A DNA stretch of 64,000 nucleotides, taken from contig OZ360224.1 of assembly GCA_977017645.1 (NCBI GenBank), positions 177,940,001 to 178,004,000 on the forward strand, in the 5' to 3' direction. This DNA comes from Torpedo marmorata (lineage: Eukaryota). Each line of letters opens with the position of its first letter. The stretch's first letter is position 1. The notes below the pieces were generated by a model. That model did no database searches. It saw only the letters and a list, made by a program, of their open reading frames with translations, and was not told where the DNA came from. Positions 1 through 60,261 of this stretch are shown one piece after another. The position numbers and the translations under genes are program-made.

Positions 1-3000
1 AATCAGAAAGCATTATTGGATCCTTCGTCTCATCATTGATTACACTTCCTAAATTTGCTTTCATTTGATTTACATTATCCTTTCCTTCCTCCACTGTTTC
101 CAGTGACACATTTGGCAGAGTTCCCTCAGCACTTAACAGCACTGGAATATTTTTACGAAGGGTTTCCTTCACTTGCCTGTTCAAAGACTCGTCTTCCATC
201 AAATCAGGCACATGAAGTCTGATGAGGGCGGAGAGCTCATTAGTCAGCCTGCTGATCAGTTCCTGAGTATCTGAGGTGCATGGATCTCGGTCTTCAGACA
301 AAGCACCAAACATTTCCTGCACTTCTGCACTCAGCATTTCTGGCTTCAAACCAGCCAGCAACTCTGCTACTTTCAAGAACCTGTTATCCTTCATGTCGTT
401 TGATTCTCTGAATTCTTGCTGAATAAATACTTGTGTCAAACAATCCTGCAGGAGATCTCTCTTTTTCACAGAACTTCGAACATCAGCAGGTATCATCACG
501 TTCGGACCAGGCTTTCGATCAGGATGTTCCATTTCTGTCTTGTATTCCATCAGACCAATGAGATTTGCCTCCTCATTAGCACCAGTTTCATCACCCACAC
601 CAGCTGCCCTTTGAACATTGGAGTTTTCTGAAAGTTTGACTTCACAAATTGTATTCTCTGAACGGCTAAGACTTTCCTCCTGTAATAGTACACTAACATT
701 TTCCTCGATTTCTAAAGACACTTGTACTATTCCTTGCAACAGCTTCCCAAGATTATTTTCTGCAGCATCTTTGATTCCCTGTCCTTCAGATTGATCTGGG
801 CTCGAAAAGTTTTCAGATTCTGCAAATGAGAGTTGGGAGTCAGGGTCTGACACCTCTCTCTCAACTGTTCTTGATCTAGAAACATTGGACATTTTGTTCT
901 CAGTTTCCTTCATCCTACACACAACCTCTCCCTTTGCTTCCATAGCCATGGAGTTACTTAGCGTCTCACCAGTCTTTCTTTCTTGTTTGCTTCCATTTAT
1001 CTCAAATTTGTTGCTTGGGTTCTGCAGGTCACCCCTCAGACCACTCTTCAATGTATCACTGGGCTCCTCATGCACAGATCTCAGCACATTCCCCACAGAC
1101 GTAATCAAGTTTCCTTTCTGTTCAGGTCCCACTGAAGAGTCATCACAATCAATACTTTGTGCACCTGTGTAATAGTCTGTAAACATCCCAGTTAACAATG
1201 TTTGTTCGTGTCGGCCAAACCTTGTATCAGGTGGTACTCTCACAACACTTTCAACCTGTTTATCACCCACTTTATTACCAATCAGATCTTGAATCTCAGT
1301 AGTACTTATTGTATTGTTCAAGCCCAACTCTTCCACACTATCTTCTCCCACAAACGTTTCTATGTCTAGTCTTCCATCCTCGTCATTCAGTTTTTCTTCA
1401 CTGGTTAGAATATTTTCTTTTTCAGATGATTCTGACATTTCAGTCTCTGGCGGTGAATCTGACATACATTCCCGAATATACATGAAAAAGTCATCTTGCC
1501 GTGAACCTTCCAAATCAGAGGATTTGGATGAAATGTAGTCCTGGTTCAAAGATAAACCTTCCGCAGAGTCCTTGCAAACATGTGGAATCTCGTTGCTAAG
1601 GAAAACATCTTCTGAAACCGATGTATCAGAAGCCAAAGACTTGCGGTTATGATTCTGACCATTCTTTGTTGCTAAATCGTGCACGATGGTCTCTCCTTCT
1701 TCTGCAGGTTGCAATGTTTTATCTTTTAAATCCTTTTTGTGATTGCTACAAGCAGTGGCCTGGTCTATATCTGCTGCCTTCAGTTTTGACATTGTCTCAA
1801 TTCCATCAGCATCCAACAATACATCATGAGGTTTAACTGTCATGTACCTTTGCCCGGTTTCTATATCAATGCTACTTAACTTCACTAAATCAGAGTACGG
1901 AATAGTGTCCAAATGACTGTTATCAATATTGCCTTGTCTTTCAGAAAATATTGTTCGGCTTTTCAAACCATCAAGTGAGATACCAACATCAGAATCCACT
2001 TCGTTAAGTTCAGTGAACGACTGGTTCGATTTCACGTTACTTTTCATTTCCACTGAAAAATCTGATGGGCTTAAACTCATTTCCCGAGGAAGCAAATACT
2101 TCCCAGAACTCAAACTGCAAACATTTTGTCGTGATATTTCTAACTCAAACAGGTCACCAGCCAGGTTTTCATTGATTAAACCATGCCTCAAAGCATTCAT
2201 CACAGAGAGGCGCAGCCCCGATTTATGCTGAATGATACCACCGTCGACAACTTGCTTGCGAAGAACGTGAATCACAGCATCCCTTTCTACAAACCCTCTG
2301 TTGACCATGTCCTGTGCAGACAAAGGTTGCCCAGTCTGTGGGTCCAGTACTCCGTGCATTTCAAACTTGTAGCTTAGAGCCCTCAGTCTGGTCGCCTGAT
2401 CAACCTGTTCTCCATTCCTTGCCCTTTCAATTTGTATTAGGTGGTCTGCATGCCCCTCATCCACCAGGCAATGCTTCAAAGCCATGTCCACCGATAGCCG
2501 ACCTGCTTGATGAAGATCCACAATGCCACCAGAAGCAACTTGACCTTCCAGCAAATGCAGAGCTGTAGAAGAATCCAAAATACCAAGCCTTACTGCATCG
2601 TTAATGCTGTGCAGTTTATGAGTTTCTGGATGAATGACCCCAGAGACAACTTTCTCGGAGAGCAGAATCTTGGCCAGCAGTTCATCATTTACTAAATCTT
2701 CTGCAACTTGAGACAATTCCATTACTTCTCCTGCATGAGAGGTACAAAATCCTCCCATCAGACCCAGCTTGTCTAATACTTTGATGGCCACCTGACTTTG
2801 GAGAAGCCCCCTTGTCACTGCTTCGCCAAGAGTTAAGTTTTCACCAGTCTTTTCGGAAGGGATTCCTCCGTCGCGGAATTGTGAGACCAAAACATCAACA
2901 ACCATCTCCTCATCCAAAAGTCCTCGTGCCAAAGCAGCATCAAGGTTGTACCTGCTACCAGTAACAGGGTCAAATATTCCACCTGCTTCAACTTCGGATT

Positions 3001-6000
3001 GGAGTTGTTTGATCAAAACACATCTGTCCCACTTGGTATTTTTCACTGCCTCGAGAGAATTTATCTGTCCACCATCTTCTTCATCCTCCTCCAGGTCATA
3101 CGAATGTCTTCCAATATCACTACCTTCAGCATTTGTCAATGATATTGCCCACTCACTTGCCTTTTCTTGCTGTGTGTTGCTTATATCCAAACAGCTGTCA
3201 ATGACTGCTGTATCTGGGTTTGTTAAACTACCTGTCATTTTATCCAGTTCAAACATTTGACTGCTTTTTTGCACAGACTCACGACTGACTTGACCTTGGC
3301 TTTTGCCCTGACCTTCAACTGTTTCAAAATATTGGTAACAGGTTTGATCGCTCTGACCTGGTTCATCAAAATCTGGGTTAAAATCTCCATTTAAAACATT
3401 TTTTTTGTCCTCGAGCAGTTCTTCTACATCTTCAGTTCCAGGTTTAATTACTTGAACCTCTTTCCCTCCTGTGAAGCCCTCATCAAACCAGGGAATTTCC
3501 TGGGTTTCTGTAATATCCTCCAACCCTTCCACACTCATAATGGCTTTGCTCCTCCAATATTTACTGTTGTTATCTACTGAAGTGGGCTCCATATGTTGAT
3601 GTATGCTACTGTTCACATCTGTATGAAATAATCCATTCATCTCATTTCCCAATGCATCATCAACGGTGTAAGTTGCAATGCAATGATCTGGCTTCTCATT
3701 CGGTGATACATCATTGATAATAACTGATTTTTCCATCATCATTTTGTCTTCCATATCTGCTATATCATCTAATGTTTCAATGATCATTATGTCCCTGTGC
3801 TTTTCACTTTCATGGTTCTCAGTACCAAGTACGCAGGGTTTACGTTTGGTCTCAGTTTCCATCGGACTTGACCGTAAAGGTTTACTGGCCACAATGAGAT
3901 ACTGGTCCGCTGATGGCGTGACTGCATCATCCATTTCTTCCACACTGCTGGAATTTTTGTTTTCCTCCACAAACTTCTCAAGGACAACTTGATTTTCAAG
4001 AGCTGTGTCCTCTAACAGGGCGTCATCAGCTTCAACTGCACTGGTGTCATCTGTATCAAACTCGACATCATCCTCTACCTTCAAAACCACATCCATCGTG
4101 TCTTTACATAATCCCTCTACACGGGTGTCACCAACAAACTCCACTATTTCATATATGTCTGCAATGTCCTCCAGACTTGGAACTGATGTTATTTTGTTAC
4201 TTCCATGTACAGGGCCTTTATTTGTTCTAGCCTCAGATTCTAATGGAAGTGGAGTAAACTCCGCTCCTTCAGTCAGAACCTGCAGTTCCACAGGAAGCCA
4301 TTGTATATTTTCATCTACCAAGTTTTTGCGATGTTCTACTGATGTAACAGCAGTATCTTGCCTTCCTCCTGCATTATTTAGTTCTTCCATCTCTGAGGGT
4401 TCCTCATACTCTTCAACATTCAGATCCCTTGCACCACGCATAGAAGAGTTCACCAACATTTCTTTAAAATCTTCAGTATTGCAGAAAAATTGATCTCTCT
4501 CCTGCACAGCGTGACTTCCATCAAGACCCAGCATTTTCTTCAAGTCTTCTCCAAACTCAGTTTGGAAGTCCATGTCTAAGGACAATGGAGTGAATCCCCT
4601 CAATTCACACATTGGATGCTGGTCAGGTGGAGTCCTTTGCATCATTTCAGCCGCCTGCTGCCCTCCCTCAGGAAGGGTAGTGGTCCCCCCCTCCCGTATG
4701 GCAGCATCTGAAGATTGCCAAGCGATGTGAGAAAGCTCAGGAATTGCATCATCTTCTGGAATTGTCGCACCCTCTTTCAGCTGCTTCTCCAACCCACTTC
4801 CAAGAGAATCGATGGTTCCACTGGCCGGCCCAATGCTTTCATTCAGGTCTGGGTCTGGACTTGAAACTCCCTGAATGGATGCTGCTTCAAGATATTCTGC
4901 AGCAGTCTCCCAAGCTTCAGTTGCCTGAACTGCCTTCCCTCCACAAAGGTTGCCAGTACCAATTGCAGCATTTCCTCGACGACCTGCTGTCGGAGAACTC
5001 AGCGTTTCCCCGTGTTCACTGAATAACAATTGCCAGAGCCCAGGTATCCATTCCCATTCTTCACTGTTCGTGTTGCCATTGTGTTCACCGGCTGCATCAT
5101 GGAGCTGCTCCCCTCCCTCAACCCCTGACTCCCATGATTCAGAATAACTTTTACCGGTGCCTGTATCTCCTGACAGCTCTTTTGATTCCAAGTGATCCTC
5201 AAGTGCCTCAACTTGCTGATCACAAAAACATTCCTGCCAGTTTTCAAAAGGATCACATGCACCGCTTGCTTCCATTACCGTCTGAACCTTCTCGTTCAGG
5301 CCACCGTCGACCAGCAGCAACCTCCTCCCTGTACCCGCGTCCATGTAGCTGTGCATCATCAAGTCAATCATGAACCTCTGCCGAACTTCCATCTCATTCT
5401 GGGTTTGATTCTGACCTTGATCCGCTTCTTCAGTGCCTGCAGCATCACTCACAGCACAAGGTTCGAGTTCCGAATCTGTGGTCCAGTCTGAGGCCTCGGT
5501 ACACGAAGACTGGAATCCTTCCTTGCGGGGCATTATGTCAGGGATTTGTATCATGCTCAGGAAGCGTGCTGTCTTCTGGTCTATGATGCCTTTCACTCTC
5601 GCTTCCTCAGGTGTGAGCACCAGTGAGCTTTCTGGGATGTAAAGGGCTGCTATTTTTTCCCTGTTGCTCAAGATTTTGTAGGCCAATTCATTTGTTACCA
5701 CTCCTTGTTGCAAAGACGTATCCGTGGAAAATATTTCACCAGAATCAGGCCAAATAAGTCCCATAAACACCCTTTGTGATTCCAACACCAAAAGAGCACT
5801 GCTTGAAGTTATTAAGTTGCATTGTACAGCTTCATCCATGGTTAATCTGCACCCATTTTTAGGGTTGACGATGCCTCCTGTTTGAACTTGGTGAGTGAGG
5901 AGTGAAGAAGCTGTATCATGATCTATCAGACCACACTCCAAAGCTTCATCCACTGTGAGACGCCTTTCAGTCTGAGGATCAATGAGCCCTCCTGCAAACA

Positions 6001-6697
6001 ACTGAGCTCCCAGAAGCCTGATCATCACTTCGCGATCTATAAGGCCTTCGTGGACTGCCCGGAAGACACTCGTCTCTCTGCCACTTTTTAAAGTGATCAT
6101 GCCTGATTCTTGCCATCTCACTGGGAGCAGCCTGAGATTTGTATCTTCATCCACAATGGTCCTTTGCATTAATTCCATCAGCGACACTCTCTCGGATGTA
6201 CTGGGATCGATCAGCTCCATGCACATTCTCTGCCTCTCCTCAATTCTGAAATACAGCCGAGCAGTGATGAATTTTCTCTGGAAAGCTTCCTCCAGGCTGA
6301 GTCTCTCACCAGTAATTGGGACACGTAGTCCTCCAGTGGCAAGCTCTGCCTCAAGAACCTTGATGACCAAAACTTCAGGAAGTACATTCCCAGCGCAAGC
6401 AGCAACAGCTGGATGGACCTCACTCATTCCACTCACAGTACTTGAAGTGTAGGTGGCATATTTACTCAGTTGTTTTAGTTGATTGAAGATTTTTTGGTCC
6501 ACTAATTGGCACTCCAAAGCTTCCTCTAAAGTAAGGCAGTGTTTTGTTTCTGGAGAAATAAGGCCTGACACAATGACCTGTGCTTCCAGCAATATGACAC
6601 CTGTATCATAATCAATACGACCGCTGTGTACTGCATGGAAGATTGGATAAACTATTCCAGTTGACAGGTCAACAACACCCGCGATGGCTTCGTAGGT
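1..6697 (-). CDS. DST: Dystonin giant BPAG1b-type exon (plectin repeats plus long acidic spacer); 3' end outside window
   Basis: Acceptor ttgattttcag|ACC at 6697, phase 0. Reads TYEAIAGVVDLSTGIVYPIFHAVHSGRIDYDTG... and DEAVQCNLITSSSALLVLESQ...NELAYKILSNREKIAALYIPESS, close to human DST b-exon. The same frame is open at 3000-1840 and at bases 40-2 (INDETKDPIMLSD), and the ORF track shows no stop-terminated ORF in this frame. Confidence 0.93.
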
Positions 6698-7385: not shown

Positions 7386-7521
7386 CTTCTCCCCTGATGC
7401 TTCAGCCAGCATGCTCTGGGATTGCTGGATTTCCTCAGAAGACTGTTCACACAGATTATCATAAGCTTCCTGAAGTGACTCCACTTGCTTTTCTGCTCGT
7501 TGATAATCGTCTTCTGATATC
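7386..7521 (-). CDS. DST: Dystonin exon, a/b isoforms (ISEDDYQRAEKQVESLQEAYDNL...GEK)
   Basis: 136 nt, tag|G...AAG|gtaat; phase fits the 13162 exon and the 6697 exon; resembles human EKQVKTLQESYNLL. Confidence 0.9.
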
Positions 7522-23656: not shown

Positions 23657-25744
23657 CTATTTCAGGGCAGTAGCCCGAACCGCTGCCTCCAGGAATCTCA
23701 ATCCCGTGTGGCAGTCAAATACAGCTCTGGCCAAAGCTTCTTTGAACGAGATCTTCTCTCTGGTTTTTGGACATACCAAGTTCCTGGTGTGCCTTGTCTC
23801 ATCCTGCAGTCTCTGTGCAGTCTGCTCATCAACAAGACCACTACGCAGGGCATCCTCCAAGGAAATTCTTCTCTGCAAGTTTGGATCGACAAGCCCACCA
23901 GTCAGATGCTGCAACTCCAGGAAGTGGTGACCCAAATCGCATCCCAATAGGTTCCTATGCAGAGCTTCAATGGTTGATAAAACCTGCTGGGAACCTGGCT
24001 GAAGGAAACCTCTAAAGGCCTGCTGTGATTTTTGAATGCGGGCAGCAATTTCTGTGTCAATTAATTCCTTTTGCAATGCTTCTGAAATTGAGTACTGCTT
24101 CCCAGTTGCTGGATTAATTATCCCACCAGTACAAGCTTGCGCTTCAAGTAATCGAGTGGCTGTCAGTCGGTCCACTAAGTTATGGTGCATGGCTTTCAGG
24201 ACAGAAATTCTTCTGCATTCATTCGGATCCCATATTCCTGCAATTGGACTGTTGGGATTGGGGGGCTCAGTGGTTCTACTTGCCAACATGTCAGCGAGCT
24301 CAGTCACTGTGATTTGACCATCCCGATATTTATTTAGCTCGACTTGGCTGATCCTGCCCTGAGCTAAAGCATCATCAATGCTGAACTCCCTCCCAGAGCG
24401 AACATCGGTAAGAAAAGACCGGGTGGTTCCCTCTGACTTCTCGGTGGCCTCCTTCCACTGAGACTGCAGCTCTGAACGTTCCAGGTAGGCCTGTTTCTCA
24501 ATGTAGTATTTCAGGAATGCATCATACAGAGTTATCTCCGACTTTGTGCTTGTGTCCACCACTGAAACGGCACTGGGCATTGCGGGGGATGGGGTGGAAA
24601 TCTTGCGCGTTCCAAAAGGGAGGAGCAGGAGACTCCCTGCTAAATCCATCACACAGAGTTTCATCAGTTCTGCATAATGCATGGCCTGGCCTGTGTTGGG
24701 ATGATGAAAGCCTCTCGCGTGGCCAAGCGTCTTGTACAAGTTGCGCGCAACCTCATGGCTCAGATGACCTTGCTTGCACGCCATCTCAGGTGGCAACCGA
24801 ACACTACACACTGGGTCAATGATTCCTCCGGTTGCAATCTGAACTTCGAGGAGCTGTGTTCCAATTTGCTTTGTAAGTAGCTTGTTCTCCATGGCTTGGA
24901 AAACGGACAAGGCCTTCCCATTATGCAAATACCCTGTGGCCGCTTTCTCTGCCTGAAGCAGTGTCTTCCTGAACTCTGGGGACACCAGTCCTTTCTCAAT
25001 TGCCTCCTGAACCGAGTACTTTCCATGGGATGAGGTGTCAACTACAAACCCTGTTGCGGCCTGAGCTTCCAGAAACTCGAGTGCTACAGATGATCCGATT
25101 ATCCCTTCCTTTGCAGCCTCATTGAAAGAAATTTTTTGCTTGCTGGATTCCAAGTAAAGACCAGCAATCGAGGTAACTTGGTTCAGATACTTGCCGAGGG
25201 ACTTCTGAACTTGCGAGACAGTCTTTACTCTTTTCTCAAGCTGCTCAGCAACGTTTTTGTTCAAGAGGTCAGCCTCAACCAGCTCCTTCACTGACACATG
25301 GTGGCACAAACCTTGAAACTCCAAAGTTTCATTGGAAGGGAAGATTTCATTTGGAGATGTGTTCACTGTGTTGGGTCCACTGTCACCTGCCAGTGCTGGA
25401 AGTATAGTGTTGTTGTTCAGGTTAAGAATCTCTGGTAGTTTCCCGCTCGTCTTGGTATGCAGTTGAGATGTCAAATTCTGAAATAAGAGCTCGACACGAT
25501 GAGATATATTCATTTTGCTGAACCTAGTTCCCACGCTGTCACCAGTGTGAGTGTTGCATTCATTTTGACCCATGCAAGATCCTATAGCATCCTGAACACT
25601 CTTACTTCCTTTATTATCCGTCTGCTCTGCTTCTAAAAGTTTGGAGTTATCGTTTAATCTTTCTCTCCCAAACGAAAGCGTCTCTTTCCCCTGGAAAGTG
25701 TTTTCTATTTTGCCATGTGATTTGCTTAGCTCCAGATTTACCAT
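23657..25744 (-). CDS. DST: Dystonin BPAG1e/BP230-type terminal exon: plectin repeat domains B and C with linker, ending in stop
   Basis: Acceptor ttttcacag|ATG at 25744; 695 aa with TSIAGLYLESSKQKISF, FLEAQAATGF, LVDRLTATRLLEAQACTGGII, CPKTREKISFKEAL..FDCHTGLRFLE, collinear with the human BP230 tail. Confidence 0.93.
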   Translation of the reverse strand: MVNLELSKSHGKIENTFQGKETLSFGRERLNDNSKLLEAEQTDNKGSKSVQDAIGSCMGQNECNTHTGDSVGTRFSKMNISHRVELLFQNLTSQLHTKTSGKLPEILNLNNNTILPALAGDSGPNTVNTSPNEIFPSNETLEFQGLCHHVSVKELVEADLLNKNVAEQLEKRVKTVSQVQKSLGKYLNQVTSIAGLYLESSKQKISFNEAAKEGIIGSSVALEFLEAQAATGFVVDTSSHGKYSVQEAIEKGLVSPEFRKTLLQAEKAATGYLHNGKALSVFQAMENKLLTKQIGTQLLEVQIATGGIIDPVCSVRLPPEMACKQGHLSHEVARNLYKTLGHARGFHHPNTGQAMHYAELMKLCVMDLAGSLLLLPFGTRKISTPSPAMPSAVSVVDTSTKSEITLYDAFLKYYIEKQAYLERSELQSQWKEATEKSEGTTRSFLTDVRSGREFSIDDALAQGRISQVELNKYRDGQITVTELADMLASRTTEPPNPNSPIAGIWDPNECRRISVLKAMHHNLVDRLTATRLLEAQACTGGIINPATGKQYSISEALQKELIDTEIAARIQKSQQAFRGFLQPGSQQVLSTIEALHRNLLGCDLGHHFLELQHLTGGLVDPNLQRRISLEDALRSGLVDEQTAQRLQDETRHTRNLVCPKTREKISFKEALARAVFDCHTGLRFLEAAVRATALK

Positions 25745-26399
25745 CTGTGAAAATCAACATGAAACATGATGAGGAGTTGAATGATCTCAGAGAGGGCCCA
25801 GAACCCAGAAGAAGCAAATGAGTGAGGGAGCGAGGGGAAAGCAGAGCCAATTCACAGAAGCCAATATCCTACAAAGGTCAGCAGAAGAAACGGCTGCAAC
25901 AAAGTTCCCCTGAAAGAGTAAAGATAGGCCACGTAATAGCCACCGCTTATCACCCCAGCAGAGCAAGATTTCAGACAAAACAAAGTGATAATGCTAGCGG
26001 CCATTCTTTTGAGTGGACCAGAAGGTATTTCTACTTCTGCTCTGACCCTCTCCGTGGCTATTCTTATTGTATCCCTCAGTGCAAGTTTGAACTAATTGAT
26101 AATCGTACTGAAGTTAAATTGTTAGTTTTAAATTGCCAGGCCAAAGGGCGAAGGTGTCTGTTCCCACCTATACTCGATGAACTCGTGCTATTTTTGGCCA
26201 ACATGCAAACAATTAACCTCAATGATGCGGGAGGAGTTTCACTGCATCTCAGGCCCAGCAACAAGATACCTCACTTCTTGAGCAACAATGCTGCACAAAT
26301 TCAGCAAAACTAGTTCATTATAAAATGCCAAGGGGCATCTCAACACTTTATTTATTTGAAGCAACTGAGTGCTTCTTAGGGAGCCCTAAACTAAGATAA

Positions 26400-28560: not shown

Positions 28561-29178
28561 ATGTGGCAGGAACATATAATGTGCAGAATGGAGTATGGGG
28601 AATCCACCTTTCCTTTCTTCACATTTGGGAAATGAGGAATGATGCAAGTCAGACCCAACTTCCAAAGCAATGTTCAGCCTTGTAAATAATTCCAACTCTT
28701 TCAGGGGGCAGTGGTGGGGGAATGCAGTTATAAACACAAATACTCCAATATTCTTGGAGACTGCTTCAGCGGTGAGTTGAATGTCGATCTCAATGCAAAA
28801 CAGAAAGGGGACAGGAGGTGAAAATTGTCAAGAGATTCGGGGGAGTGAACTTCTGGGAATTGTGTGGGAAACAAAATTAACTTTATATTCTGGAGTTCTT
28901 GTTCTAAAATAAAAAAAATATTTGCGCTACAATTCTAAAACTGAAATCTATCATGTGTCGATGGACAATTAAGGCAGCAACCAAATTATAAGGGGATCTC
29001 GATTTTCGAGAATGCTTTCCCAACAGGCCATCTCTTCCACTCATCGTGAACCAGACACATTCGTTAAAGCCTACCCTCGTTATGATCTGGTTCACTGCTA
29101 AGATTGCCGGTGGTCTAGCAAGTAGCTCACCCAAAGATGCCCAAGCAAGCCGAGGTTTCACTGCGGATAGGAATATAC

Positions 29179-31488
29179 CTCAGATGCCTGATCCATGATT
29201 CCCAGCGGTGAATGGTTCTGCCAAGTCTCATCGCTCGTCGAAGCAAGCCTCATTTTCTGCAGGGCTTTTTGAACGATGAGTTGCTGCGTTTTCGCCGAAC
29301 CCGCTGCTTTCTGCAACCTGATGGACCTGGTCTGCGCCACTGGGTGCTGAGCAGCTGGTGCAGGTTTCCAGCTCGGTCGCTCACTCTCCGAGGGTTGACC
29401 CTCAAAACCGGTCAGCGAACTCACACTTTGGCTCACGGACTGATGCCCTCCGAGGACCTTCTTTCTGTCCTGCGTTTCATACCGCCCCGGGCGACGGCAA
29501 CAATCATCTGCTTGCCACGCCAAACCTTCTGTTATGCGGTGATATTGGTCGACTCCAGTCCACAACTCTTTGGCCCAGTTACTCCAGGACTGGCTATTTC
29601 CTTTGTTCAACTCCTGCTGGGCATGTTCGAGCTTGAAGCCGAACTCCTGCATCAGTGAATGCTGCCTCCTCACCAACTCTGACAGCCCTTCCTTCTCCCT
29701 TTTCAGAGCGGACAGCTCGTCCTGGAGGTCCCTCGCAGCTCTCGCCGCTGCCAGGTTCGTCTCGGTGGCCTCTGCCAGCTGGTGCTCCAGGACCGCCATT
29801 GCCTGCCGGCTTTCCTCCACCTTCTCCTCCAGCTTCCAAACCCTGACCTCTTGTTCCGGGCCCTCCCTCACTCTCTGGATGAGCTGCTCCTGTACTTTCT
29901 TCAGCTGCTCGCTCAAGCAGTCTGCCTGCAGCCTCTGAGCTACGCCCCTCTCCTCCGCAACCTTCTTCTCCATCTTCAACGAGTCGAGTTCGCTCTGCAT
30001 ACTGGCCACCAGCCTGTCCACTCTGAGCTTGGCCAACACCACCTCGTCAGCTTTCTGCTTCAGTTCAGTTGCCGTGCGTTTCTGATGCATCAAATCATCC
30101 TCCAGTGTCCTGACCATCACCTGATACTTGTGTTCGCTCCTCCCCTTCTCCTCCACAGCCTCCTCCATACTCTTCAGTTTGTCTTTCAAGAGATAGGCCT
30201 CTTTCTGTTGAAGCTGCATACTTTCCTCTGCCAGCGTTCTCTCGTTCTGAAAAAGACTGGCCTCGGTCCTTAAGATCTTCGCAACATCTTCGGCGTGACT
30301 CCAAGCCTGACTGACTTCATCCAACTTGCGCTGCATCTCCTTGGACACCTGTTGGCTTTTGGCCAACTTCCCCTCCAGCTCCATGGCCCTGTCCGCCCAA
30401 TCCTTTTGTCCGCAGATCTCCCCCTCGGCGGCTAACAGCTTCTCCTTTAAGTCGCTGATCGTAGCGTTGCAGGTTAATGCTCGCTGCACGGCAAGGTCGC
30501 AGTCAAGGCGAAGAGCCTCCAGTTCCTTTTCCAAACTCTCGGCCCGGGCTCGAGCGGTGACGCAGTCCCAAGAGAGTGCCTCAGATTTCACCCTCTGCTC
30601 CTCCTTTTGCCGTTGGCTGTCCTTCAGTTCGTTTTGCAGGTGGGCCACCTTCTCCCGATCACCCTCCGCTTTCTTGAGCAGCTGCTCTCGCTCTGCCCGG
30701 CCTTCCTCCAGTTGAAGGTTTGCAACCCCCAGCTCGGCCAGCTGCCAAGACGCTTTCAGCTCCGCCTCGCTCACATTCTGCAGGAGGATCCTCATTTCCA
30801 GCAGCAAGTCCATCAAGTCTGTTTGCACTCGGTCACCAACCTGGCGAAGCTGATTGACCAATTCCCTCTGCCCCTCCTCTTCGTTGGCTGATGCACCCCT
30901 TCCCACCGCTGCCTCTGGCCCATCTAGCAACCTTCTGATATAAACTTGCATCAGATCCAGCACTTGTGCAATTCTCACCACCTCTGAGCTGGAGCCCGAA
31001 AGGTCTACCTGCTCGAAGGATGTAGGCCACTGTTGCGCTGGACTACATTTCTGCTTCTCCAGATGTTCACTGAGGTGACCTTCCGATCTGCTCCTCACTA
31101 AAACGCTGCAGTCACTCTCTCTTCCAGATTTATCCTGCTTTTCTCCAGCGTCCATCTGCTCCAACGCCTGCTTCTTCATCCGTTCCAACTCCTCCCCAAG
31201 CTCGGCTTTCTCCCTCAATACCCTTTCCAGTTCCACCCTATGCCGGCTCACCTCCAAGTCCAACTTGCTCCTCTCCAGACTCATTTCTTCCGCCACTTGC
31301 CAGCGCTTCCTCCACTCACTCTCGACGTCTGCCAGCAAGCACTCCAACCGCTGCTCTAGCGGAAGCTCCTTCCCTCTCGACTGACCCCACTCCATCGCCA
31401 GACCTTCCATCATCTTGGCACCCAGGGCTGTCAGAGACTGTTGCTGACTGAGGGCCCCTAAGTTGGCCGGAATTGCTGGAAACCTTTT
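29179..31488 (-). CDS. DST: Dystonin BPAG1e/BP230-type coiled-coil rod exon (770 codons)
   Basis: Acceptor ttgtattag|AAA at 31488 is in frame with ORF 29158-31413; donor GAG|gtatat at 29179; phase 0/0; E/K/Q/L heptad-rich; EEMSLERSKLDLEVSRHRVELERVLREK resembles human EDISLQKIRAESEAKQYRRELETIVREK. Confidence 0.85.
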
Positions 31489-37464: not shown

Positions 37465-38594
37465 AAACAAAAAATGGGCAATATCTTCAGTTTAAAAAAG
37501 ACTCGGCAGTATTTACAACCAAAAGCTGTCCTGCAAAGTTCTTTTTATTGTCATGTAATAATGCAAAAATGTAATATACACAATATACTTTTGCCTGCCA
37601 TTAAGGGGTGGTAATATTGATGTCATACCCATTCACGTTGCTCATATTTGCAGCCCAAGCACAAATTTGGACAAAGGATCAAATGACAGCAGGTACCCAA
37701 GCACCACCACAGGATTGTCAGCAGGAAGAATCAGAAAGGCTGCCACACCACAAGTAACCAGCAAGTGGCAGCACCAGACCAGTAAACACCTTCTGAAGAC
37801 ACCATGCATTAATTCACCCACTTCCGTTGCATCCACAGCGCCCAGCTCCCCCACCCACCCACCCCTCTCACTCAATACCATGCCATTACTGAACTCATTT
37901 ATATCATCTTAATTTATTCCCCCACATTTGCCGTAGTTCTTACCTCTTTCTGAAATAGCAATCCCATCACTGTCGTGACCATTTGTACAGCAAAAATAAA
38001 CCTACTTTCCCGCATGTAAAAATTGTGATGTTGATTTATATTGTCCAGTTCTAACTTTCAAACTCAACAATGTTCAGAGACGTTACTGAAATTCAAGATT
38101 TCTCCCTCGCTCTCTCTCTGACCGAATCATCAATCTCATTCACCCCTGCCTCTGCACTCCTGCCCTATTAAAGTAAACTTTCCCTGGAACCTGCAAAATA
38201 ACCCATTCGGCTTTTGACACCTTCTAATTCTTCCCTTCGCATGTAAGTAAATGAATCCACTCCTTTTATGCCTTGCAGCTATGGAGGAGGACCACATGCA
38301 AACCACTGCTTCAAGCTACTTCTCAAGGCGGCTGCTGCTGTAAACGACACACCTCCCTCCACCTCCTCTCATTCCCCACCTCCAGGTGCTTGGAGTATCC
38401 CTTGGTAACAAAGCAGTTCATTCAACATCCCGACCTGTCCCTGATCAGACACATCCCAGTATATCAAAGGTCTGAATACTCTCTACCTCTTCATGAGTGC
38501 TGCCTCTTTAAGCCTATCTCTCGGTTTAAAAATAATACCTCAGTGCTTCAAATTCCATTTATATTGGCTGAATTTATTTCCCCATATTCCTTAC

Positions 38595-38693
38595 CTCTTC
38601 TTCCTCTGATCTTTTTAAAGCATCACTGGCAAACTTTACATACTGCATCATGAGGGTAACCAGGGCTGTGTAGCGTGTGCGGAGATCCATGAA
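38595..38693 (-). CDS. DST: Dystonin exon, last shared exon ([33 protein letters not shown])
   Basis: 99 nt, AG/GT; near-identical to human [21 protein letters not shown]. Confidence 0.95.
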
Positions 38694-38814
38694 CTACAGA
38701 GGGATACAAAACGTAACACCAAAGTTACTGCAGCCCACCATTTCTAACTTCCTGTAAATGCAGCTTCAGGTAGATGAGTATTTTAGGACAATCTGTAAGG
38801 AAAGGGTTAAGTTA

Positions 38815-39415
38815 ATTCAGCATGTCCCCAATATCTCTTACCAATTCTTATAGAAACACCAGAGAAAGTATCCTGTCCAGGTGCATCCCAGCTCGGTACA
38901 GAAACTGCTCTGCCCGTGACCGCAAGAAACTGCAGAGAGTTGTGAACACATCTCAGGCCATGACAGAAACCAACCTCCCCTACATCGGGTCCGTGCACAC
39001 CTCCCACTACCTCGGGAAAGCTGCCCATATATTAAAGGACCAACCCCACCCCAGTCCCACTCTCTTCTCCCCCCTTCAGTCAGGCAGAAGGAACATGAGG
39101 TTGAACATGTGAAACTCCATATTCAAGGACAGCTTTCTTTCCTGCTGTTATCAGACTCTGAATGGATGTCCGTTGGTACAGATGATTCCCCTGCACTATT
39201 GTTCAACTGTACTTTTCTCTATAAACTGCACTTTGACCTTGTAACACTACACCCTGCACTCTTTGACTTACTGTAACACCACACCTGGCACTTTTATTTC
39301 AATATTGCTCTACCTGCTGGACCTAAGTATGTGTTAACTTGCCTGGATGGTAAACAAAACAAAGCTTTTCACTGTATCTTGGCACACATGATAATAAACC
39401 ATTCAATTCAATTTC
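38815..39415 (+). mobile_element. Degraded Rex1/Babar-type LINE 3' end
   Basis: ESILSRCI...RKKLQRVVN...ILKDQPHP motifs; aataaa plus (attca)n tail. Confidence 0.7.
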
Positions 39416-39838
39416 TAACTTCCAGCTACTGAGGAAGCCAACGTTAGAAGATTGAGGAAGGCAAATCAACTCCCAGCCTCTGCAACAATCTCTTGTTCTT
39501 CATGTAGAACCAAGCAACAGCACCCATGGTCAGAATCGAACCTGACACCTTGGACGGGTGAAGGAGCCTCACTAAACACTATGCACAGTGCCACCCAGGG
39601 AACCGATCCAAATCCTGTTTGAAAGCTCTCATTGAGCATTTCCACCCTCCTTTGGGCAGTGTCTTGTCTTGGCTGCAAAAGAAATCTTTGTCTTAAACCT
39701 GGATCCCCCTGGATAAGAACCACCCTCAATGGGGAAAAGTGCTCATCATGACCTTTGATGGTTTTGAAATGTTCCACTAAGTTTCCCCTTGACCCTCTCC
39801 ATTTGCAGGATGAGATTAATAAAGTGAATGTCGGCCAC

Positions 39839-39946
39839 CTCTTGTACAATGAGATCTGAAGAACTCTGCATCCTGCGCCGCTTGACTGGGGACTTCTGCT
39901 GGGAGTCGACCATGGCTTTGTAGGTCAACAGCTGAAGCTCATATTC
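39839..39946 (-). CDS. DST: Dystonin exon ([36 protein letters not shown])
   Basis: 108 nt, AG/GT; conserved plakin motif SPVKRRR. Confidence 0.95.
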
Positions 39947-40039
39947 CTGCAATTGGGAAAAAGAGACAACAGTTTACTTTAATCATTCAAGTATTACCAA
40001 CAAAGCCCAGCCAAGAAGCGCCAACAATCCACTGATGAC

Positions 40040-40465
40040 ACTCCAGGTTTTTAGAAAAGCTTACGGGGAGGTTGGATGAGGTGGGTCTTGACTCCCTGAA
40101 GTGACGGAGACTGAGGGGAGTTCTGTCAGAGGTTTACAAAGTCATGAGGGGCGTGGAGAAAGTGGATGCTCAGTCTTCATTCTAGGGTCGATGATCCTCG
40201 AACTATGGGGGCATAGGTTTAAGGTGAGAGAGGAGAATTTAGGAGGGACCTGAGAGGCAATATTTTCATTCAGAGGATGGTCCGTATCTGGAACGAGCTG
40301 CCAGATGAAATGGTAAAAGCGCGAAGAAAAACAACATTCAATCATGGATAGGAAGGGCTCAGAGGGATAATGCAGGCAAATGTGACTAGTCCTCAACGCC
40401 TACTTGATCATCATAGTCAAGTTGGGTTGAAGGGCCTGTTCTATGCTGTATGTCTCTATGACTTT
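40040..40465 (+). mobile_element. Degraded CR1 3' end
   Basis: RRLRG..EVYKVMRG and WNELP remnants; tail gggcctgttctatgctgtatgtctctatg. Confidence 0.75.
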
Positions 40466-41394
40466 ACAGACAACAGAGCTCAGAGTCTTAATTCATTCTT
40501 CAACATTCAGTGAGTGGTGGCCGTGCCTCACTGGTCAGCTCTGGCTTCAGTAACTACAACCTGCAACAGAGAGATGAGCACTCGATTCATGCTGAGAGTC
40601 CAGGGCTCTCATGGGGAAATGCTCCAATCACGAGGGGGCCATGCAGATGTTCACACTGCTCCTTCTTCAGTGAGATCGTAGCTCCCACCTGCCTCAGTTC
40701 CATCCACCAGCCATCGCACCATCTGCCTGGAGTCCACAGCCTTTCGGAGTGGGATTGGAGGAAAGTGAGCTCCACGTTTCACCTACTTTGGTGTGGAAGA
40801 TGCTCCCCGCCATTTCTCCTGAATAGGTCAGTTCTGATCTTTACGGTGAGCTGTTGTTCATTTTTTATCCTAGTTCACAATCTACTACCAGAGGGAACTG
40901 CAACAATCTCATTGATTCCTTTTGACATGTGGAACCCTCAAACCTTTTCTCCATAAAGAAGCACCACCCAACTTACCCATCTTCGATTTCAACCTGTTCA
41001 TTCTGGTCTCATCCTCTTTAATCTGCACTGTATCCCCTTAGGGTCAATCTATCTCTCAGGGACGAGATCCTGACTAAACTCTGATAACAGACCACATTCA
41101 ATAACCGTTCAGTACCAGCATTCATCAGTGAGGTTCATGAAGACTGCTATATATTTCAGAACCTTGACGGGTACAGTGATAAACATTTAACCAAGCTGCT
41201 CAGGGAAGGTTTTGGAAGTCTTCACCACTAAACTGACACTACCATAATGTCCAGACATGATCAAACCTTTTCAATTAATTTTACCCCTTGCGTTTTCCCC
41301 TTAATTCTGCTCAGTTTTCCCCTCTCCTGTTTCCTTTTCAGTGTTACTGCTGACAGTGGACACACATCCTTCTCAGCAATGCATGCCAGATCAA

Positions 41395-41690
41395 AACAAC
41401 TTGCTGAGTAATCCTGCAGATGAGGGTGGTGCTGTTGTGGTCTGGCGCACTGACCTCTACCTTGCCGAGGAAAGACGACAGCTCGCAGACACCTCCTCTT
41501 ACTTACCCCTTGAACAGGACCCCACTAATTAACATCAGGCCACCGTCTCCCACACCAACACTGAAAAGGGCTCAGGCCTGAAACATTGGTTACCCTTTAC
41601 TTCCTCTGAATGCTGCGTGACCTGCTGAGTTTCTCCAGCACATTTGTGCATTGCACTCAACCCCAGCATCTACAGACTTTCTTGTTTAAC
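41395..41690 (+). mobile_element. Penelope-like element fragment (RT start fused to terminal repeat)
   Basis: PADEGGAVVVWRTDLYLAE..RQL.DTSSY; tgctgcgtgacctgctgagtttctccagca end. Confidence 0.75.
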
Positions 41691-41859
41691 TTGCTGAGCA
41701 AAGGAATGTCTCATCTTCCCCTTTTCCAATTGTGTTAAATCTGTTAATACTGCTTAACCAAATGTTGATTCTTTTCTTATTCTATCAGAACTATTCAAGA
41801 TTTAAATTATCATTTTACATCCTGTGAAAATAAATGAATCCACTTGACCCCAACCTCAC

Positions 41860-41943
41860 CTTTACAGTGGAAGAATATTCTTCGGAGTACTTCTGACATT
41901 CATCCATTTTCCCCTGCTTCAGTTCAACCTCAGAAGTCAACAT
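41860..41943 (-). CDS. DST: Dystonin exon ([28 protein letters not shown])
   Basis: 84 nt, cag|ATG...AAG|gtgag. Confidence 0.93.
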
Positions 41944-42609
41944 CTGCAAAAACAAGGACACGAACTCAACTGTGGCCAGCTGCCAATCACATATTTCCTT
42001 CCCATCCCACTGAACGAATCCATCTGAAATGATTCCACATCTTCAGGACTGATTGATCTTTTAACTCGTTTATTTCACAGGTTTGTTCAATGCTCAGGTG
42101 CGTAATTCGCAATGTTATCTGAGCTGGTCAGCTCTCTTTCAGTCCTGGACGCACACTCGTGGATTAGTCAGGGGCACTTTGCGCAGTGGTCAGTTTCTCC
42201 CGTGCAGAGAGCTTGGAGTTGTGAGCATTGAATGGAGTGTACTATGATGTGAGCAAGTATTGCAAGTGAATCTCTGCTTGCTCAGTCATAGCGTGAGAGT
42301 TCGAGCCTGCTCGCATGATCTGTCCCATGTGACCCAACCTCATTCGTGTCACATTCAATTCCAACAGTCTGAAGCGGAGGAAAGTACCTTTCAGAAAGTG
42401 GATTGTTTCGTGAATTTATCACCCTCACACAGATCGGCAGCACGTCCAAGGTTATTGTGTTCATGGTGAAGGTCAGGTTGGGTGGGTCTGGTCTGGATAA
42501 GATAGTGAATTCTTGGACAGTGGTCATATTTGGGTTGGCCATAGTAAGCCAAGGTTTCAATTCTGCACCCAAGCTGACCTCCAGCGCAAATCGTTAAAGA
42601 GCCTATTAC

Positions 42610-42772
42610 CTTTTGTTGGTGGAGTTCGTCGGCAAGAGCTCGGATATCTTCTGGCTGGCGCTCTTGCATCCTCTGTTGGGTGGCCTCCATTTCTTGGATC
42701 CACTGGTCAAGGTCTTTGTGACAGTCTCTGTACCAGTGGAGGGACATGCTGATTCCCTCAAGCTCATGCAAT
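42610..42772 (-). CDS. DST: Dystonin exon (LHELEGISMSLHWYRD...LHQQK)
   Basis: 163 nt, AG/GT, phases fit. Confidence 0.93.
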
Positions 42773-42979
42773 CTGAAAGCAGAGAGGACAAGCTTTAGGT
42801 TTGTCCCACAGCACCAATCTATCTGGGTCCCAACACCATAACTCCAGCTAAGCAATTGTCTTTTATTCTAATGTACAACACGATACACTACATCTTTAAA
42901 GGAGGACCTTCTTAGTTCCTTCAAATCTACCTTTCTCATTTCCAGTGTTTTCTGATTGCCATCCACTGTTAATCTCAAA

Positions 42980-43210
42980 TTTATAAATTTAGACTCACAG
43001 CATGGTAACAGGCCCTTTTGGCCCACGAGCCCGTGCCACCCAATTATACCCAATTGACCTACAACCCCGGTACGTTTTGAGCAGTGGGAGGAAACCGGAG
43101 AACCCACGCAGACACTGGGAGAACGTACAAACTCCTTACAGACAGCACGGGATTCGAACCCTGGTCCCGATCGCTGGCGCTGTAACAGCATTGCGCTAAC
43201 CGTGCCACCC
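42980..43210 (-). mobile_element. V-SINE (HE1-like)
   Basis: Reverse complement of the 11875 family. Confidence 0.85.
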
Positions 43211-44663
43211 ATGTCTCTCCTAATCCAAGAGGACCTGGAAGACTCAAATTGGTCCATTCTGGAAATGTTCTCCCACTTTGGACAAATCTTCACTTACCTC
43301 CTCTTGCTGGTTTGAGGAACTCACCACAGATCCAGGGGGTTAAGCCCCAGTCTGGGATATCTAGACTGATTGAGGAAGGAATACTGGGGCAACACAGCAC
43401 ATAAGCCTTCACGTTCAGCCAAAAGAAGGCCTACGTCTTCTGAGATAGGCGTTAAAGATTTTATAATACTACCTGAACAAGAGCAGGTGTGTTCTCACCA
43501 ATCTCCAGATAATTTCCATGTTAGTGCCACAGGCAAAGGCATTTGGCCTATCAAATCCATGCAATCTGATAACATGTTAAATCACCTCATCTCATTTTCC
43601 AGCTCCTTTTCTATAGGTTATGGGGCATTAATTGCTCATCTAAGTATCTTAATGGCAGATTCGTTATTTTATCATCCTAGTATCCTGTCCCTGGACTGCT
43701 GACTGGGGAAATGAATTTGAATCCATTCACAACTCCGGAATTTAGACCTTGTGAATACAAGAACCATCTGCTGTCCTTATCCATCCTGGGAAATGTACAA
43801 CTCCAGGCCCACCAATGAAGGGAAATGGTCAAGCAAGCCAACACAGTTCAGGGTCAATTAAAGGTGGATTTACCTGTGAAATCCATAGAATAGATTGGAA
43901 TAAAACCTATCACCCTTTCAGCCAAGGAAGCTGATGAGTCTGTGTGAAAAAAGTATTCCTCAACACCCTCTAATCCTTCCATTCAAATCCTTGTACCCCC
44001 CCTCCCCCCAGTCATTAACCTCTTTGCTTTGGGAATTAGTTCTCCGTTGCCCATTCCATCAAGGCCTCTCAATTCCACTTGCACCTTCAATTTCCAGATT
44101 AAAATCCTACTCCATCTTCCTTCAGTCCTGTCCCCTTCAGTACTATCCCCATACTTCTGCACCTCCCCTGTACCCTCTCATGACATCTCATTCTTCCAGA
44201 GAGATGCTGACCAGAACCATACCCAAGCTCTGTCCTAATCAAGGGATATGGCTCAGCTTGATCTTGCTGCTCGTACTCCACCCATGTCAAGAAAGGAAAA
44301 AGAAATCCCATGTCTGTTATTTCTATCCTATCCCCTTCAGGAATCTATGGACAGGCACCAAAATCAGTTTGTTCCCTGACATTACTGGGGCCATTTGTGT
44401 CTCAGATGAATTACCGTAAATGTTGTGCTCCCTGCATTAATTGGAAAAGGCTCTGAGCCACAAAAAATAGTTGTATTGACACAAGTCTTGCTCATCATCC
44501 CCAAGGTTGCACTGGGTTGTCTTAACATTGGCACAGAGCAGTTACCCTGCAGAATATTATCATTTTCAATCAATAACAAGGAACCTACATGCTAAATCCA
44601 TTGAACAGGTGGGAGCTTTTTGCCATAACACTGCCAATTTTATCTGTTACAACCAGTACAGAC

Positions 44664-44857
44664 CTGTTGTCAATTTGGGAGCGAATGCTCTCCCATCTCT
44701 CAGCCAACTGAACTGCCTTCTCTTTGTGCCAATCCATGTCCATGTCACGCTCATTGTGGGCTCTCAGCATCCGCTCACTGATGGCCTTGCCTTTCTGCAG
44801 TTCGTCTTCGAGTGAGTGGAAGACTTCCCGTTTCTCGTCCACTTCAGCCCGCCATTG
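44664..44857 (-). CDS. DST: Dystonin exon ([22 protein letters not shown]...QIDN)
   Basis: 194 nt; resembles human [22 protein letters not shown]. Confidence 0.94.
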
Positions 44858-45423
44858 CTGTTCAGGAGTTAAGTGCAGTAGCAGTGAGTATGTATAAAGT
44901 GTGGGGGGGGGGGGGGAGACAAATGGGATGACATAATTTAAATTATCATTCACTCAAGTGATGTGGGCTCCGCAGAATATAATTGCCCATCCTTAATTGC
45001 CCTTGACAAAGTGATGGTGGTGAGCTTGAACTGCTGCAGTCCTTGAGGTGTGGGCTGACTCACAATACTGTTAGCGAAAGAGTTCTACGATTTTGAAGGT
45101 GAAGGAACCGTGATGTATTTCCAAGTCAGGTCGGTGTGTGGCTTTAAATTATGGATGTGTTTGAAACAGTAGAACTGGGGGAAGATACCATCTGTGGCGA
45201 GTCCAAAACAAGGATCCATAAGACAGTCCAAGAAGGAATTTAGGAAAAATCATTTCACCCAAAGAGAAGGAAGAACATGATGGATAAACTCCAAAAGATG
45301 AGATTTGCTGGAATCAGATAAAGCTGGGGGAAGTTCCTGCATCATGGACTAATGAAATCTGGTGATATGTTATTATATGATTTTTTTTTCCAAATGTTAG
45401 GATAGAATAAAACTCTATGTTAC

Positions 45424-45562
45424 CTTCAGTGTACTCTGCAGAGATTGAATAGCTTCTGGGTCAGGTGGCACTGCATCTTCTCCTCCAAGTTTCGTCTCAT
45501 ACTGTTTAACAAGCGCCTCGGCTTCCTGGGTGTTTTTAACAATCAAGTTGACAGTCTTCAAC
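45424..45562 (-). CDS. DST: Dystonin exon ([25 protein letters not shown]...STLK)
   Basis: 139 nt, AG/GT, phases fit. Confidence 0.94.
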
Positions 45563-45957
45563 CTGCAGTTGGAAACAAGGCTCATTTTAAGCCCCTTCTG
45601 TAAACAGTTGTAAACACATCAGCCCCATGAGTTCTTCAAAGATCACTATTTACAGGACCCTTCTTTACCCAGCATGCAAAGAGGGAGAGAAACCGCTCTA
45701 CCTCTGGGATGGAAAGCATACATGGCTTTCTCCAGAGATGGATGGGGATCCATACCACTATGGATACTGGGTGAAAACTCCCAATTACCACTTATTTATT
45801 TAAAAACTGTTTATGCAATGACTTTTACAAAGATGCAGGTGTCTGCAAAATAAAGAACAGAATGCAGTACAAAGTGTCCATGATTTACAGGTTTCATTAA
45901 ATTCAAAATGAAAAAAAGGACAAATTATTGCATAATATTTGCCACTTGAACCCTTAC

Positions 45958-46133
45958 TTTTCCAAGTAAATGGAAGAGAGCGAGTAGACTTGATTGAGAT
46001 TCTGCAGCACCACGCTGAGCTCCGTCCTTAGGGTCAAAGCTGATGGTGAGGAGGTTTGACTACAGAACTGGTCACACTTCACAGTTACTTTCTCCAGATC
46101 CACAACAAGCTCCTCCAGCTCACTCTTTAGCTT
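45958..46133 (-). CDS. DST: Dystonin exon (KLKSELEEL...LQNLNQVYSLSSIYLE)
   Basis: 176 nt, AG/GT, phases fit. Confidence 0.94.
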
Positions 46134-46267
46134 CTGGTGAGAGAACGATGTAAATGCAATCAGTCCAGTGTGGTGACCCATATTTTACAGTGCTAGATTA
46201 ATCATCCACAGATCACAAGTTCAAATCCCTGCTGATATTTGGTGGAATCAGTAAGTGATAATATTAG

Positions 46268-46630
46268 AACACAGAGCAACACAGCACAGTACAGGCCCTC
46301 CAGCCCAGAATATGCCGACCCACATAAACTCACTCCACACTCAATCTAACCCTTTCCTTGCTCAGTCCATAACCCTCCATTTTTCTTACATCCATGTGCC
46401 TATCTAAGGGTCTCTTAAATGTCCTTATTGTATCAGCCTCGACAATGCATTCCAGGTACCCACAACTCTCTGTAAAAAACCTATTTCTGACATCTTCCCT
46501 AAACTTTCCTCCACTTACCCTAAACACTGGCTGCCACCCGATCAATGCCCCTTCTATTTTTATACACCTCTATTGAGTCACCTCTCATCCTCCGTTGTTC
46601 CAAAGAGAAAAACCCTAGCTTGCTCAACCT
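46268..46630 (-). mobile_element. Degraded CR1 3' end
   Basis: RFFT..VEADTI.TFKRPLDRHM..MEGYG translation. Confidence 0.75.

Positions 46631-60255: not shown

Positions 60256-60261
<6 letters not shown>

Follow-up and report, generated by a model that had tools for sequence, protein, structure and literature searches.

According to reviews, the b isoform of dystonin (DST-b) has one internal cluster of plectin repeats and MACF1b about twice as many repeats, a difference that is treated as fixed. The number of repeats is put at 9–11 for the internal plakin repeat domain (PRD) region of mammalian DST-b (bioRxiv 10.1101/122010; PMC3352950) and at ~20, organized in five PRDs, for that of MACF1b (PMC4914211; bioRxiv 10.1101/122010). 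The question raised by a 64,000-nucleotide stretch of the Torpedo marmorata genome (hereafter the window) is how a dystonin-like gene came to contain a second cluster, which an earlier note, made from this DNA alone, had attributed to an ancestral architecture lost by mammalian DST. A search of the literature outside subscription journals found no paper on a second cluster in non-mammalian DST, the shark and ray query yielding general papers only. The second DST cluster is a real but modest evolutionary variant, which refines the history of the gene family and entails no new mechanism. The explanation taken as a whole, namely an ancestral cluster 2 predicted to form an extra PRD, through which the long isoform would gain a weak site for filament binding, is probable.

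Identity of the gene

The gene carrying the giant exon is DST, as judged by exons that match DST, the presence of exons of the BPAG1e type, PRIM2 at a distance of 0.75 Mb on the 5′ side and the location of MACF1 on a separate contig. All features given below are on the minus strand of the window. Approximately 20 exons detected by tblastn (38589..63779) encode the plakin domain together with spectrin repeats and are 51–85% identical to bear DST, the values for MACF1 being lower at the exons that match both. Between the plakin-domain exons and the b exon, as in DST, are located a BPAG1e-type coiled-coil rod exon (ORF bounds 29161..31488; 776 aa), for which the only, weak matches were DST of birds and beaver, and a BPAG1e-type terminal exon with PRDs (ORF bounds 23660..25753; Pfam 273.5 bits), which over 551 aa is 49% identical to canary DST, compared to 41% for shark plectin. 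PRIM2 (PF04104 exons at 178.73–178.95 Mb of the same contig) lies 5′ of DST on the opposite strand, as in the human gene order. The MACF1 of the same genome is found on another contig (C41) beside NDUFS5, whose position on the 5′ side of MACF1 also corresponds to the human order, and has a cluster 1 that is 81% identical to that of basking shark MACF1; neither a MACF1-type cluster 1 nor a 5′ NDUFS5 is found at the window gene.

That the latter is MACF1 or a third spectraplakin, as its two-cluster layout, known from MACF1b, might suggest, can to all intents be dismissed in view of the adjoining PRIM2, the separate MACF1 beside NDUFS5, the DST-like and BPAG1e-type exons, and a quick tree in which a branch with a support of 100 places cluster 1 with DST. 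Both tree and synteny identify the gene as DST, and the premise that the remaining exons and cluster 1 are DST-like is borne out.

Layout of the giant exon

The open reading frame of the giant DST-b exon occupies positions 1..6697 and extends beyond the window to position −976 (contig position 177939024), for a total of 7,674 nt or 2,558 codons, in phase 0 at both ends, each of which is marked by contigs of relatives. Its AG acceptor (6699–6698) closes a 688-nt GT-AG intron, across which it is spliced to an upstream exon (7386..7520; tblastn). This splice joint is present in all four contig sets of close relatives, the evidence for splicing being the joint itself, as none of these sets is on record as RNA.

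Cluster 1 (5528..6697; Pfam Plectin 230.7 bits, 8 stretches) comprises two PRDs of DST type, being 84% identical to its Rhinoraja counterpart, 52–56% to tetrapod DST and 45–49% to tetrapod MACF1 and the MACF1 of the same genome. A displaced half-repeat found by motif scan (5288..5398; 65–86% identity among three elasmobranchs) likely completes the second PRD of this cluster. There follows an acidic spacer (3050..5287; 34–54% identity in elasmobranchs) with 176 D/E versus 57 K/R in exon residues 401–1222. Pfam recognized no family in the spacer (5398–3101) or in the tail (1699–2), and from the end of cluster 1 (~5528) to the start of cluster 2 (~3049) the gap amounts to ~826 aa. Cluster 2 as a whole (1832..3049) gave 144.1 bits with Pfam Plectin (E 1e-42, 5 stretches, query 3100–1700), so that the second run of repeats announced by the earlier note beyond cluster 1 and a spacer of ~800 aa is real; the four peptides that it quoted all lie, where it had placed them, in a single minus-strand open frame. 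A species-specific oddity or an assembly artefact is excluded, since cluster 2 occurs in a skate and two sharks as well as in contigs from two related organisms.

Repeats and predicted fold of cluster 2

Alignment, repeat HMM and structure model indicate that cluster 2 begins with three N-terminal repeats (2663..3049), the first of which (3031–2888) is found only in DST and is common to ray-finned-type dst. They are followed by repeats 1–4 of a predicted complete PRD (2108..2662; block pLDDT 85–97), the second and third of which are separated by a helical insertion of 20 residues, then by a loop of ~70 aa predicted to be disordered (1910..2107; pLDDT <50, model residues 312–380; 26–59% identity in elasmobranchs) and by a closing half-repeat consisting of a helix and a hairpin (1832..1909; pLDDT 83–89; 56–84% identity), which is predicted to complete the PRD across the loop. 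For cluster 2 the prediction is a fold of three repeats and one complete PRD, the latter agreeing, by prediction, with the definition of such a domain as 4.5 repeats of ~38 aa, each made of a hairpin and two helices, in a single globule.

Model residues 130–406, which include the closing half-repeat, span the whole envoplakin PRD (VIA Z 14.6, rmsd 2.8, 166/193 residues aligned). The same predicted 4.5-repeat fold is shared with the envoplakin, desmoplakin and plectin PRDs (PDB 4qmd, 1lm5, 1lm7, 5dzz and 2n03; Z 12.2–14.6; compare PMC4782060), the best unrelated entry coming after them at Z 3.7. Unlike these domains, the ray PRD is internal instead of C-terminal, contains two insertions and has a groove that is only partly basic.

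The segment is 37–38% identical to deer MACF1 over ~380 aa and 39% identical to the MACF1 of the same genome. In both genes a single giant exon, situated after the plakin domain and before the spectrin rod, holds the two clusters, and their second clusters share a collinear core of ~260 aa with 42–47% identity, the 20-residue insertion and the closing half-repeat. On the other hand, cluster 2 of the ray belongs to DST and at its N-terminus has one repeat more than MACF1; about two internal MACF1 repeats, located before the last quoted peptide, are replaced by the disordered loop, and ~2.5 C-terminal repeats, located after it, are missing. In the alignment, both the internal and the last 2.5 repeats are absent from all four elasmobranch DST rows. 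The spacer also differs, ~826 aa in the ray DST compared to ~380 in the MACF1 of the same genome. Since the first quoted peptide has no MACF1 counterpart, collinearity begins ~40 aa into the segment, and the collinearity with the second MACF1b cluster claimed earlier holds for the core, whereas ends and middle differ. Because one DST-only repeat is present and about four MACF1 repeats are missing, cluster 2 is not a MACF1 copy; a recent copy is excluded by the 39–42% identity.

Possible partners of the extra domain

Inclusion of the phase-0 exon in the b isoform would place an extra PRD ~800 aa past cluster 1, at the end of a flexible acidic linker, where it could establish low-affinity electrostatic contacts with intermediate filaments of the desmin or vimentin type, acting by avidity together with cluster 1. 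Such a role has slightly less than an even chance. The groove positions considered are those of envoplakin R1876, R1895, K1901, R1914, R1952 and K1994, mapped by sequence alignment, the last being unmappable; of the five mappable positions in the window three are basic, those of R1895 and R1914 being occupied by His and Pro, respectively. In favor of filament contact, a basic residue occurs at the K1901 and R1952 positions in 12 of 12 full rows. Against it count the two non-basic positions, the acidic net charge of the domain and the poorly dispersed spectra given by the envoplakin Glu mutants at two of the three basic positions; moreover, filament binding by the PRDs of MACF1b was still considered unproven in a 2025 review.

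Retention from the ancestor is also compatible with a domain that binds a non-filament partner (an organelle, a membrane or a junction protein) or is just a folded spacer, a possible though doubtful reading. It would fit the incomplete basic groove and the acidic net charge of the domain (30 K/R versus 44 D/E), as well as the existence of PRD-A modules which have few basic groove residues and, according to reviews, may have other functions; furthermore, the PRDs of MACF1b direct it to the Golgi, and the repeat region of Shot is functional in the absence of cytoplasmic filaments. Against it stand the basic K1901 position, maintained in every full row, and the fact that reviews assign Golgi targeting to the first two MACF1b PRDs. 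As these correspond by position to cluster 1, the extra targeting module suggested earlier for cluster 2 finds no support.

Distribution among vertebrates

Cluster 2 is 59–75% identical in a skate and two sharks, its N-terminal part is retained in seven of ten ray-finned-type dst proteins and its C-terminal part is seen in elasmobranch DST only. With a repeat HMM for the DST-only first repeat, ray-finned dst proteins from four distinct sequence clusters rank 5–12 of 5,568 domain matches (37–49 bits), the best other repeat scoring 32 bits. The feature is thus not peculiar to this species, being common to skates and sharks and partly kept in ray-finned fishes. No cluster 2 was found in any of the 15 tetrapod DST proteins searched, which include those of frog, snake, birds and mammals. 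The claims concerning human proteins were tested with owl monkey, bear and beaver DST and with deer and beaver MACF1; mammalian DST-b is orthologous to the ray gene, with a cluster 1 at 54–56% identity and a long acidic insert, but these three DST proteins lack the second cluster, so that an equally good match is not found in them. No sequence could be assigned to lamprey, hagfish, chimaera, coelacanth or lungfish, nor could a cyclostome outgroup be recognized among the matches listed.

Being partial in ray-finned fishes and absent from all tetrapod DST proteins searched, cluster 2 was likely lost stepwise and tetrapod-wide, not by mammals in particular; of the earlier proposal, ancestral retention is the best supported reading and the mammalian loss has to be amended. 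This series of full, partial and missing clusters offers natural material for a search after the binding partners of internal spectraplakin PRDs, a question that bears on DST-b myopathy.

Retention or exchange

Cluster 2 likely goes back to the one spectraplakin gene that existed before the duplication and was then lost stepwise in DST. The ancestral exon would have had two clusters; after duplication one of the N-terminal cluster-2 repeats would have disappeared from MACF1, and internal and C-terminal ones from DST, ray-finned dst subsequently losing the C-terminal part and tetrapod DST the entire cluster. Accordingly worded, the DST/MACF1 repeat difference would be a late product of DST-side loss, with cartilaginous fishes near the ancestral layout. 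Invertebrate spectraplakins (Drosophila Shot-PH; amphioxus KAI8481242.1, with 15 detected repeats as 1 + 7 + 7) likewise carry plectin repeats after the plakin domain and before the spectrin rod, but these are more uniform and, with equal scores to DST and MACF1, could be assigned to neither cluster 1 nor cluster 2.

The ratio between the DST–shark MACF1 and the shark MACF1–bony MACF1 distances is 1.41 (1.18–1.68) for the cluster-2 core and 1.39 (1.21–1.64) for cluster 1, and this equal depth of divergence favors pre-duplication retention. In unrooted trees of the shared N-terminal part DST cluster 2 lies outside MACF1, from which it is split at 95/93 and 88/87.

It is unlikely, albeit with several data in its favor, that only the N-terminal repeats are ancestral to DST and that in early cartilaginous fishes MACF1 sequence replaced the C-terminal part of the PRD; were it so, an exchange between chromosomes would have made a complete PRD of an ancestral half-cluster and given sharks and rays a filament-binding module absent from bony vertebrate dystonin. 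Indeed, the C-terminal part is restricted to elasmobranch DST and its distance ratio, 1.21 (0.96–1.52), has a range that includes 1; AU tests fail to reject a shark-lineage exchange (p 0.0501 and 0.263), and in two trees rooted on distant PRDs elasmobranch DST falls inside MACF1, joining elasmobranch MACF1 with unstarred supports (88/62 and 84/79). However, MACF1 monophyly is likewise not rejected (p 0.378 and 0.237), and trees rooted on the plectin, desmoplakin and envoplakin PRDs are unresolved and partly implausible: in the 84/79 tree the root lies within ray-finned MACF1 and tetrapods are united with sharks, against the species tree, which suggests misrooting. Moreover, shark MACF1 and non-teleost bony MACF1 match the C-terminal part at 48% and 47% identity, respectively, and DST and MACF1 reside on different contigs. 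The earlier judgment that exchange between paralogues is less likely stands insofar as retention is better supported, with the qualification that the AU tests leave room for exchange and the rooted trees lean weakly toward it.

Finally, cluster 2 is very improbably a decaying relic devoid of function, as might be surmised from its truncation in ray-finned dst, its disappearance in tetrapods and the decay already undergone by two internal repeats. In fact, across three elasmobranchs, sharks and rays, the identity of the folded core (66–77%) is near that of cluster 1 (71–84%) and far above that of the spacer, the predicted fold is confident and, beyond a variable loop, conservation returns in the closing half-repeat.

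The second plectin-repeat cluster of the giant exon

An open frame runs on the minus strand from 6778 to beyond the left end of the window; within it the giant exon starts at 6697, directly after an AG acceptor, and ends at window position -976, so that it measures 7,674 nt or 2,558 codons. The four window peptides that the earlier note had taken for a second run of plectin repeats all lie in the frame of this exon, and a Pfam Plectin check of its translation gave 144.1 bits (E 1e-42) for 3100-1700 and 230.7 bits for cluster 1 (6697-5528), the spacer and tail of the exon yielding no Pfam family. The second cluster (cluster 2, 3049-1832, minus strand) is real. A conserved closing half-repeat is also seen at 5398-5288 (minus strand), with a variable loop between it and cluster 1, a layout that is that of cluster 2 and is found in MACF1 and fish dst as well.

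Between 7386 and 6697 lies a GT-AG intron of 688 nt, which is skipped in contigs of all four runs considered (two studies; two related organisms, roughly 92-95% alike; none of the runs recorded as RNA); furthermore, one contig of 20,655 nt spans the upstream exon and the entire giant exon, and then continues. Therefore, cluster 2 belongs to a spliced transcript in close relatives.

Identity of the gene

That the gene is dystonin (DST, BPAG1) and not its paralogue MACF1, as the earlier note held, is borne out by several concordant lines of evidence. The plakin exons of the window are 51-85% identical to bear DST, MACF1 being lower where both match, and two large BPAG1e-type exons, a rod exon (31488-29161) and an exon for the terminal plakin repeat domain, or PRD (25753-23660), both on the minus strand, lie between the plakin exons and the giant exon. 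Their presence in a ray DST makes it likely that the epithelial isoform layout is older than bony fishes. The contig also carries PRIM2 exons, ~0.75 Mb to the 5' side. Of the 31 matches of cluster 2 in its own genome, the best beyond the window is an exon on contig C41 (40% identical), with NDUFS5 0.5 Mb 5' of it; we take PRIM2 to adjoin human DST, and NDUFS5 human MACF1. Finally, in a quick tree of cluster 1 (41 sequences) a branch with support 100 splits the eight named DST from the eight named MACF1 rows; on the DST side the window and the skate Rhinoraja are sisters, as C41 and basking shark MACF1 are on the other. In this ray-like fish, the window carries DST and contig C41 carries MACF1.

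Anatomy and predicted fold

Cluster 2 of DST and that of MACF1 have in common a collinear core of ~260 aa and a closing motif. DST has one additional repeat at the start and ends with this motif, whereas MACF1 continues for ~2.5 repeats and has about two more repeats where DST has a diverged stretch of ~70 aa.

In the AlphaFold2 model of cluster 2 (23 rows; mean pLDDT 75.9, pTM 0.73), residues 1-314 form seven repeat units, the stretch 312-380 is disordered, and a helix with a hairpin is modelled confidently at 385-404. All six Foldseek matches at E < 0.001 are PRD structures, and the envoplakin PRD is matched over its full length by residues 130-406 of the model (Z 14.6, rmsd 2.8, 166 of 193), the next unrelated entry having Z 3.7. 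From these units and this alignment, cluster 2 is predicted to consist of three repeats and one complete PRD whose last half-repeat would dock after a long loop. Over three elasmobranchs, the core is 66-77% and the closing motif 56-84% identical, as against 34-54% for the spacer and 26-59% for the loop, which indicates selection.

Distribution among vertebrates

Cluster 2 is 75, 60 and 59% identical to the DST of Rhinoraja, Scyliorhinus and Chiloscyllium, respectively, and 36-39% identical to tetrapod, sturgeon and shark MACF1. When cluster-2 profiles were run on the sequence following cluster 1 in 33 proteins, the full cluster was found in four of five elasmobranch DST, the fifth, from Leucoraja, being a fragment that breaks off too soon. 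Its first 110-170 residues are kept in seven of ten ray-finned-type dst (42-126 bits with a profile made from elasmobranch rows alone), of which Metynnis is assigned by name and the other six by the cluster-1 tree; two of the remaining three are too short, and Danionella covers the region yet gives no match. The profiles did not detect cluster 2 in any of 15 tetrapod DST (best 4.8 bits). Among the ten named ones, seven cover the entire insert (bear, owl monkey, beaver, fulmar, goose, rattlesnake and poison frog); of the others, two are bird models that leave out the greater part of it and one stops short; the absence of a matching segment from mammalian DST, claimed previously, thus holds in bear, owl monkey and beaver. 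Three MACF1-type proteins of the scan lack a match, two being short and one a turtle model with a short insert; the absence of cluster 2 from the short-insert Chelonia mydas MACF1 model (P0196) is likely a gene-model skip. A turkey protein outside the scan has no match downstream of cluster 1.

In Metynnis (P0036) the partial cluster lies ~1,600 aa past cluster 1, in the other ray-finned-type proteins ~300 aa. Cluster 1 looks degenerate in five ray-finned-type exons (P0226, P0230, P0235, P0270 and P0215, from Diretmus), three of which retain the first repeat of cluster 2. Short stretches resembling a decayed first repeat of cluster 2 can be seen by eye ~300 aa past cluster 1 in Danionella (P0204) and P0270, below profile detection.

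Evolutionary origin

Three observations count for ancestral retention. When 368 proteins were searched with a profile built on the first repeat, which is DST-only, there were 5,568 domain hits; after the four training rows, ray-finned dst repeats took ranks 5-12, five of these eight repeats being near-copies of one sequence. Unrooted trees of the part common to ray-finned dst split DST from MACF1 (95/93 with 16 rows, 88/87 with 26). The distance to shark MACF1, relative to that between shark and bony MACF1, is 1.41 for cluster 2 and 1.39 for cluster 1.

On the other hand, there is a small probability that an old partial exchange with MACF1 in the shark lineage contributed to DST cluster 2. The same ratio is 1.21 (0.96-1.52) in the elasmobranch-only part, AU tests of such an exchange gave p 0.0501 and 0.263, and in two trees rooted on distant PRDs elasmobranch DST joins elasmobranch MACF1 (88/62 and 84/79, unstarred); however, these trees do not reject MACF1 monophyly (p 0.378 and 0.237) and the second conflicts with the species tree. 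A recent transfer from MACF1 is excluded. In line with a repeat-rich ancestor, 15 repeats were detected at the equivalent position of an amphioxus spectraplakin, matchable to neither cluster.

Possible function and published work

PRDs bind intermediate filaments via a basic groove, according to the sections covered of PMC4782060. At the five of six envoplakin groove positions that sequence alignment placed (all except K1994), the window is basic at R1876, K1901 and R1952 and has His at R1895 and Pro at R1914; at K1901 and R1952, all 12 full DST and MACF1 rows have a basic residue. We tentatively suggest, with somewhat less than even confidence, that the PRD of cluster 2 would be a weak filament contact that, in the long isoform, reinforces cluster 1 through avidity. 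The domain carries a net acidic charge. A different binding partner or a spacer role is somewhat less likely. A targeting role, proposed earlier, finds no support, since the portions covered of two reviews (PMC4914211, bioRxiv 10.1101/122010) assign Golgi targeting to the first two PRDs of MACF1b. Mice that lose Dst-b develop a myopathy with aggregates of desmin (bioRxiv 10.1101/2022.03.17.484743, in part), which fits a muscle role, but the mouse protein lacks cluster 2.

Reviews count ~20 internal repeats in MACF1 and 9-11 per DST region, and part of PMC3352950 gives five PRDs for MACF1b vs up to two in BPAG1 isoforms. In the parts covered, PMC8782857 deals with vertebrate plakin gene gain and loss and does not treat the giant exon, and PMC5979291 and PMC11989829 leave the role of the MACF1b PRDs open. 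Literature searches, with a coverage exclusive of subscription journals, turned up no description of a second cluster for the DST of fishes; public databases already list the shark proteins, annotated as predicted dystonins.

Other features of the genome

Contig C5 of the same genome carries two long plectin-repeat arrays 0.75 Mb apart (G000:C5:6.01-6.03 Mb, minus strand, and 6.78-6.79 Mb, plus strand), with open frames of 4,193 and 4,052 aa in which many units are nearly identical; they are likely relatives of epiplakin and plectin. The DST introns of the window contain reverse transcriptase and endonuclease-like frames (8311-11783, 18572-19411, 34541-37198 and 57145-57624), presumably fragments of LINE-type retrotransposons.
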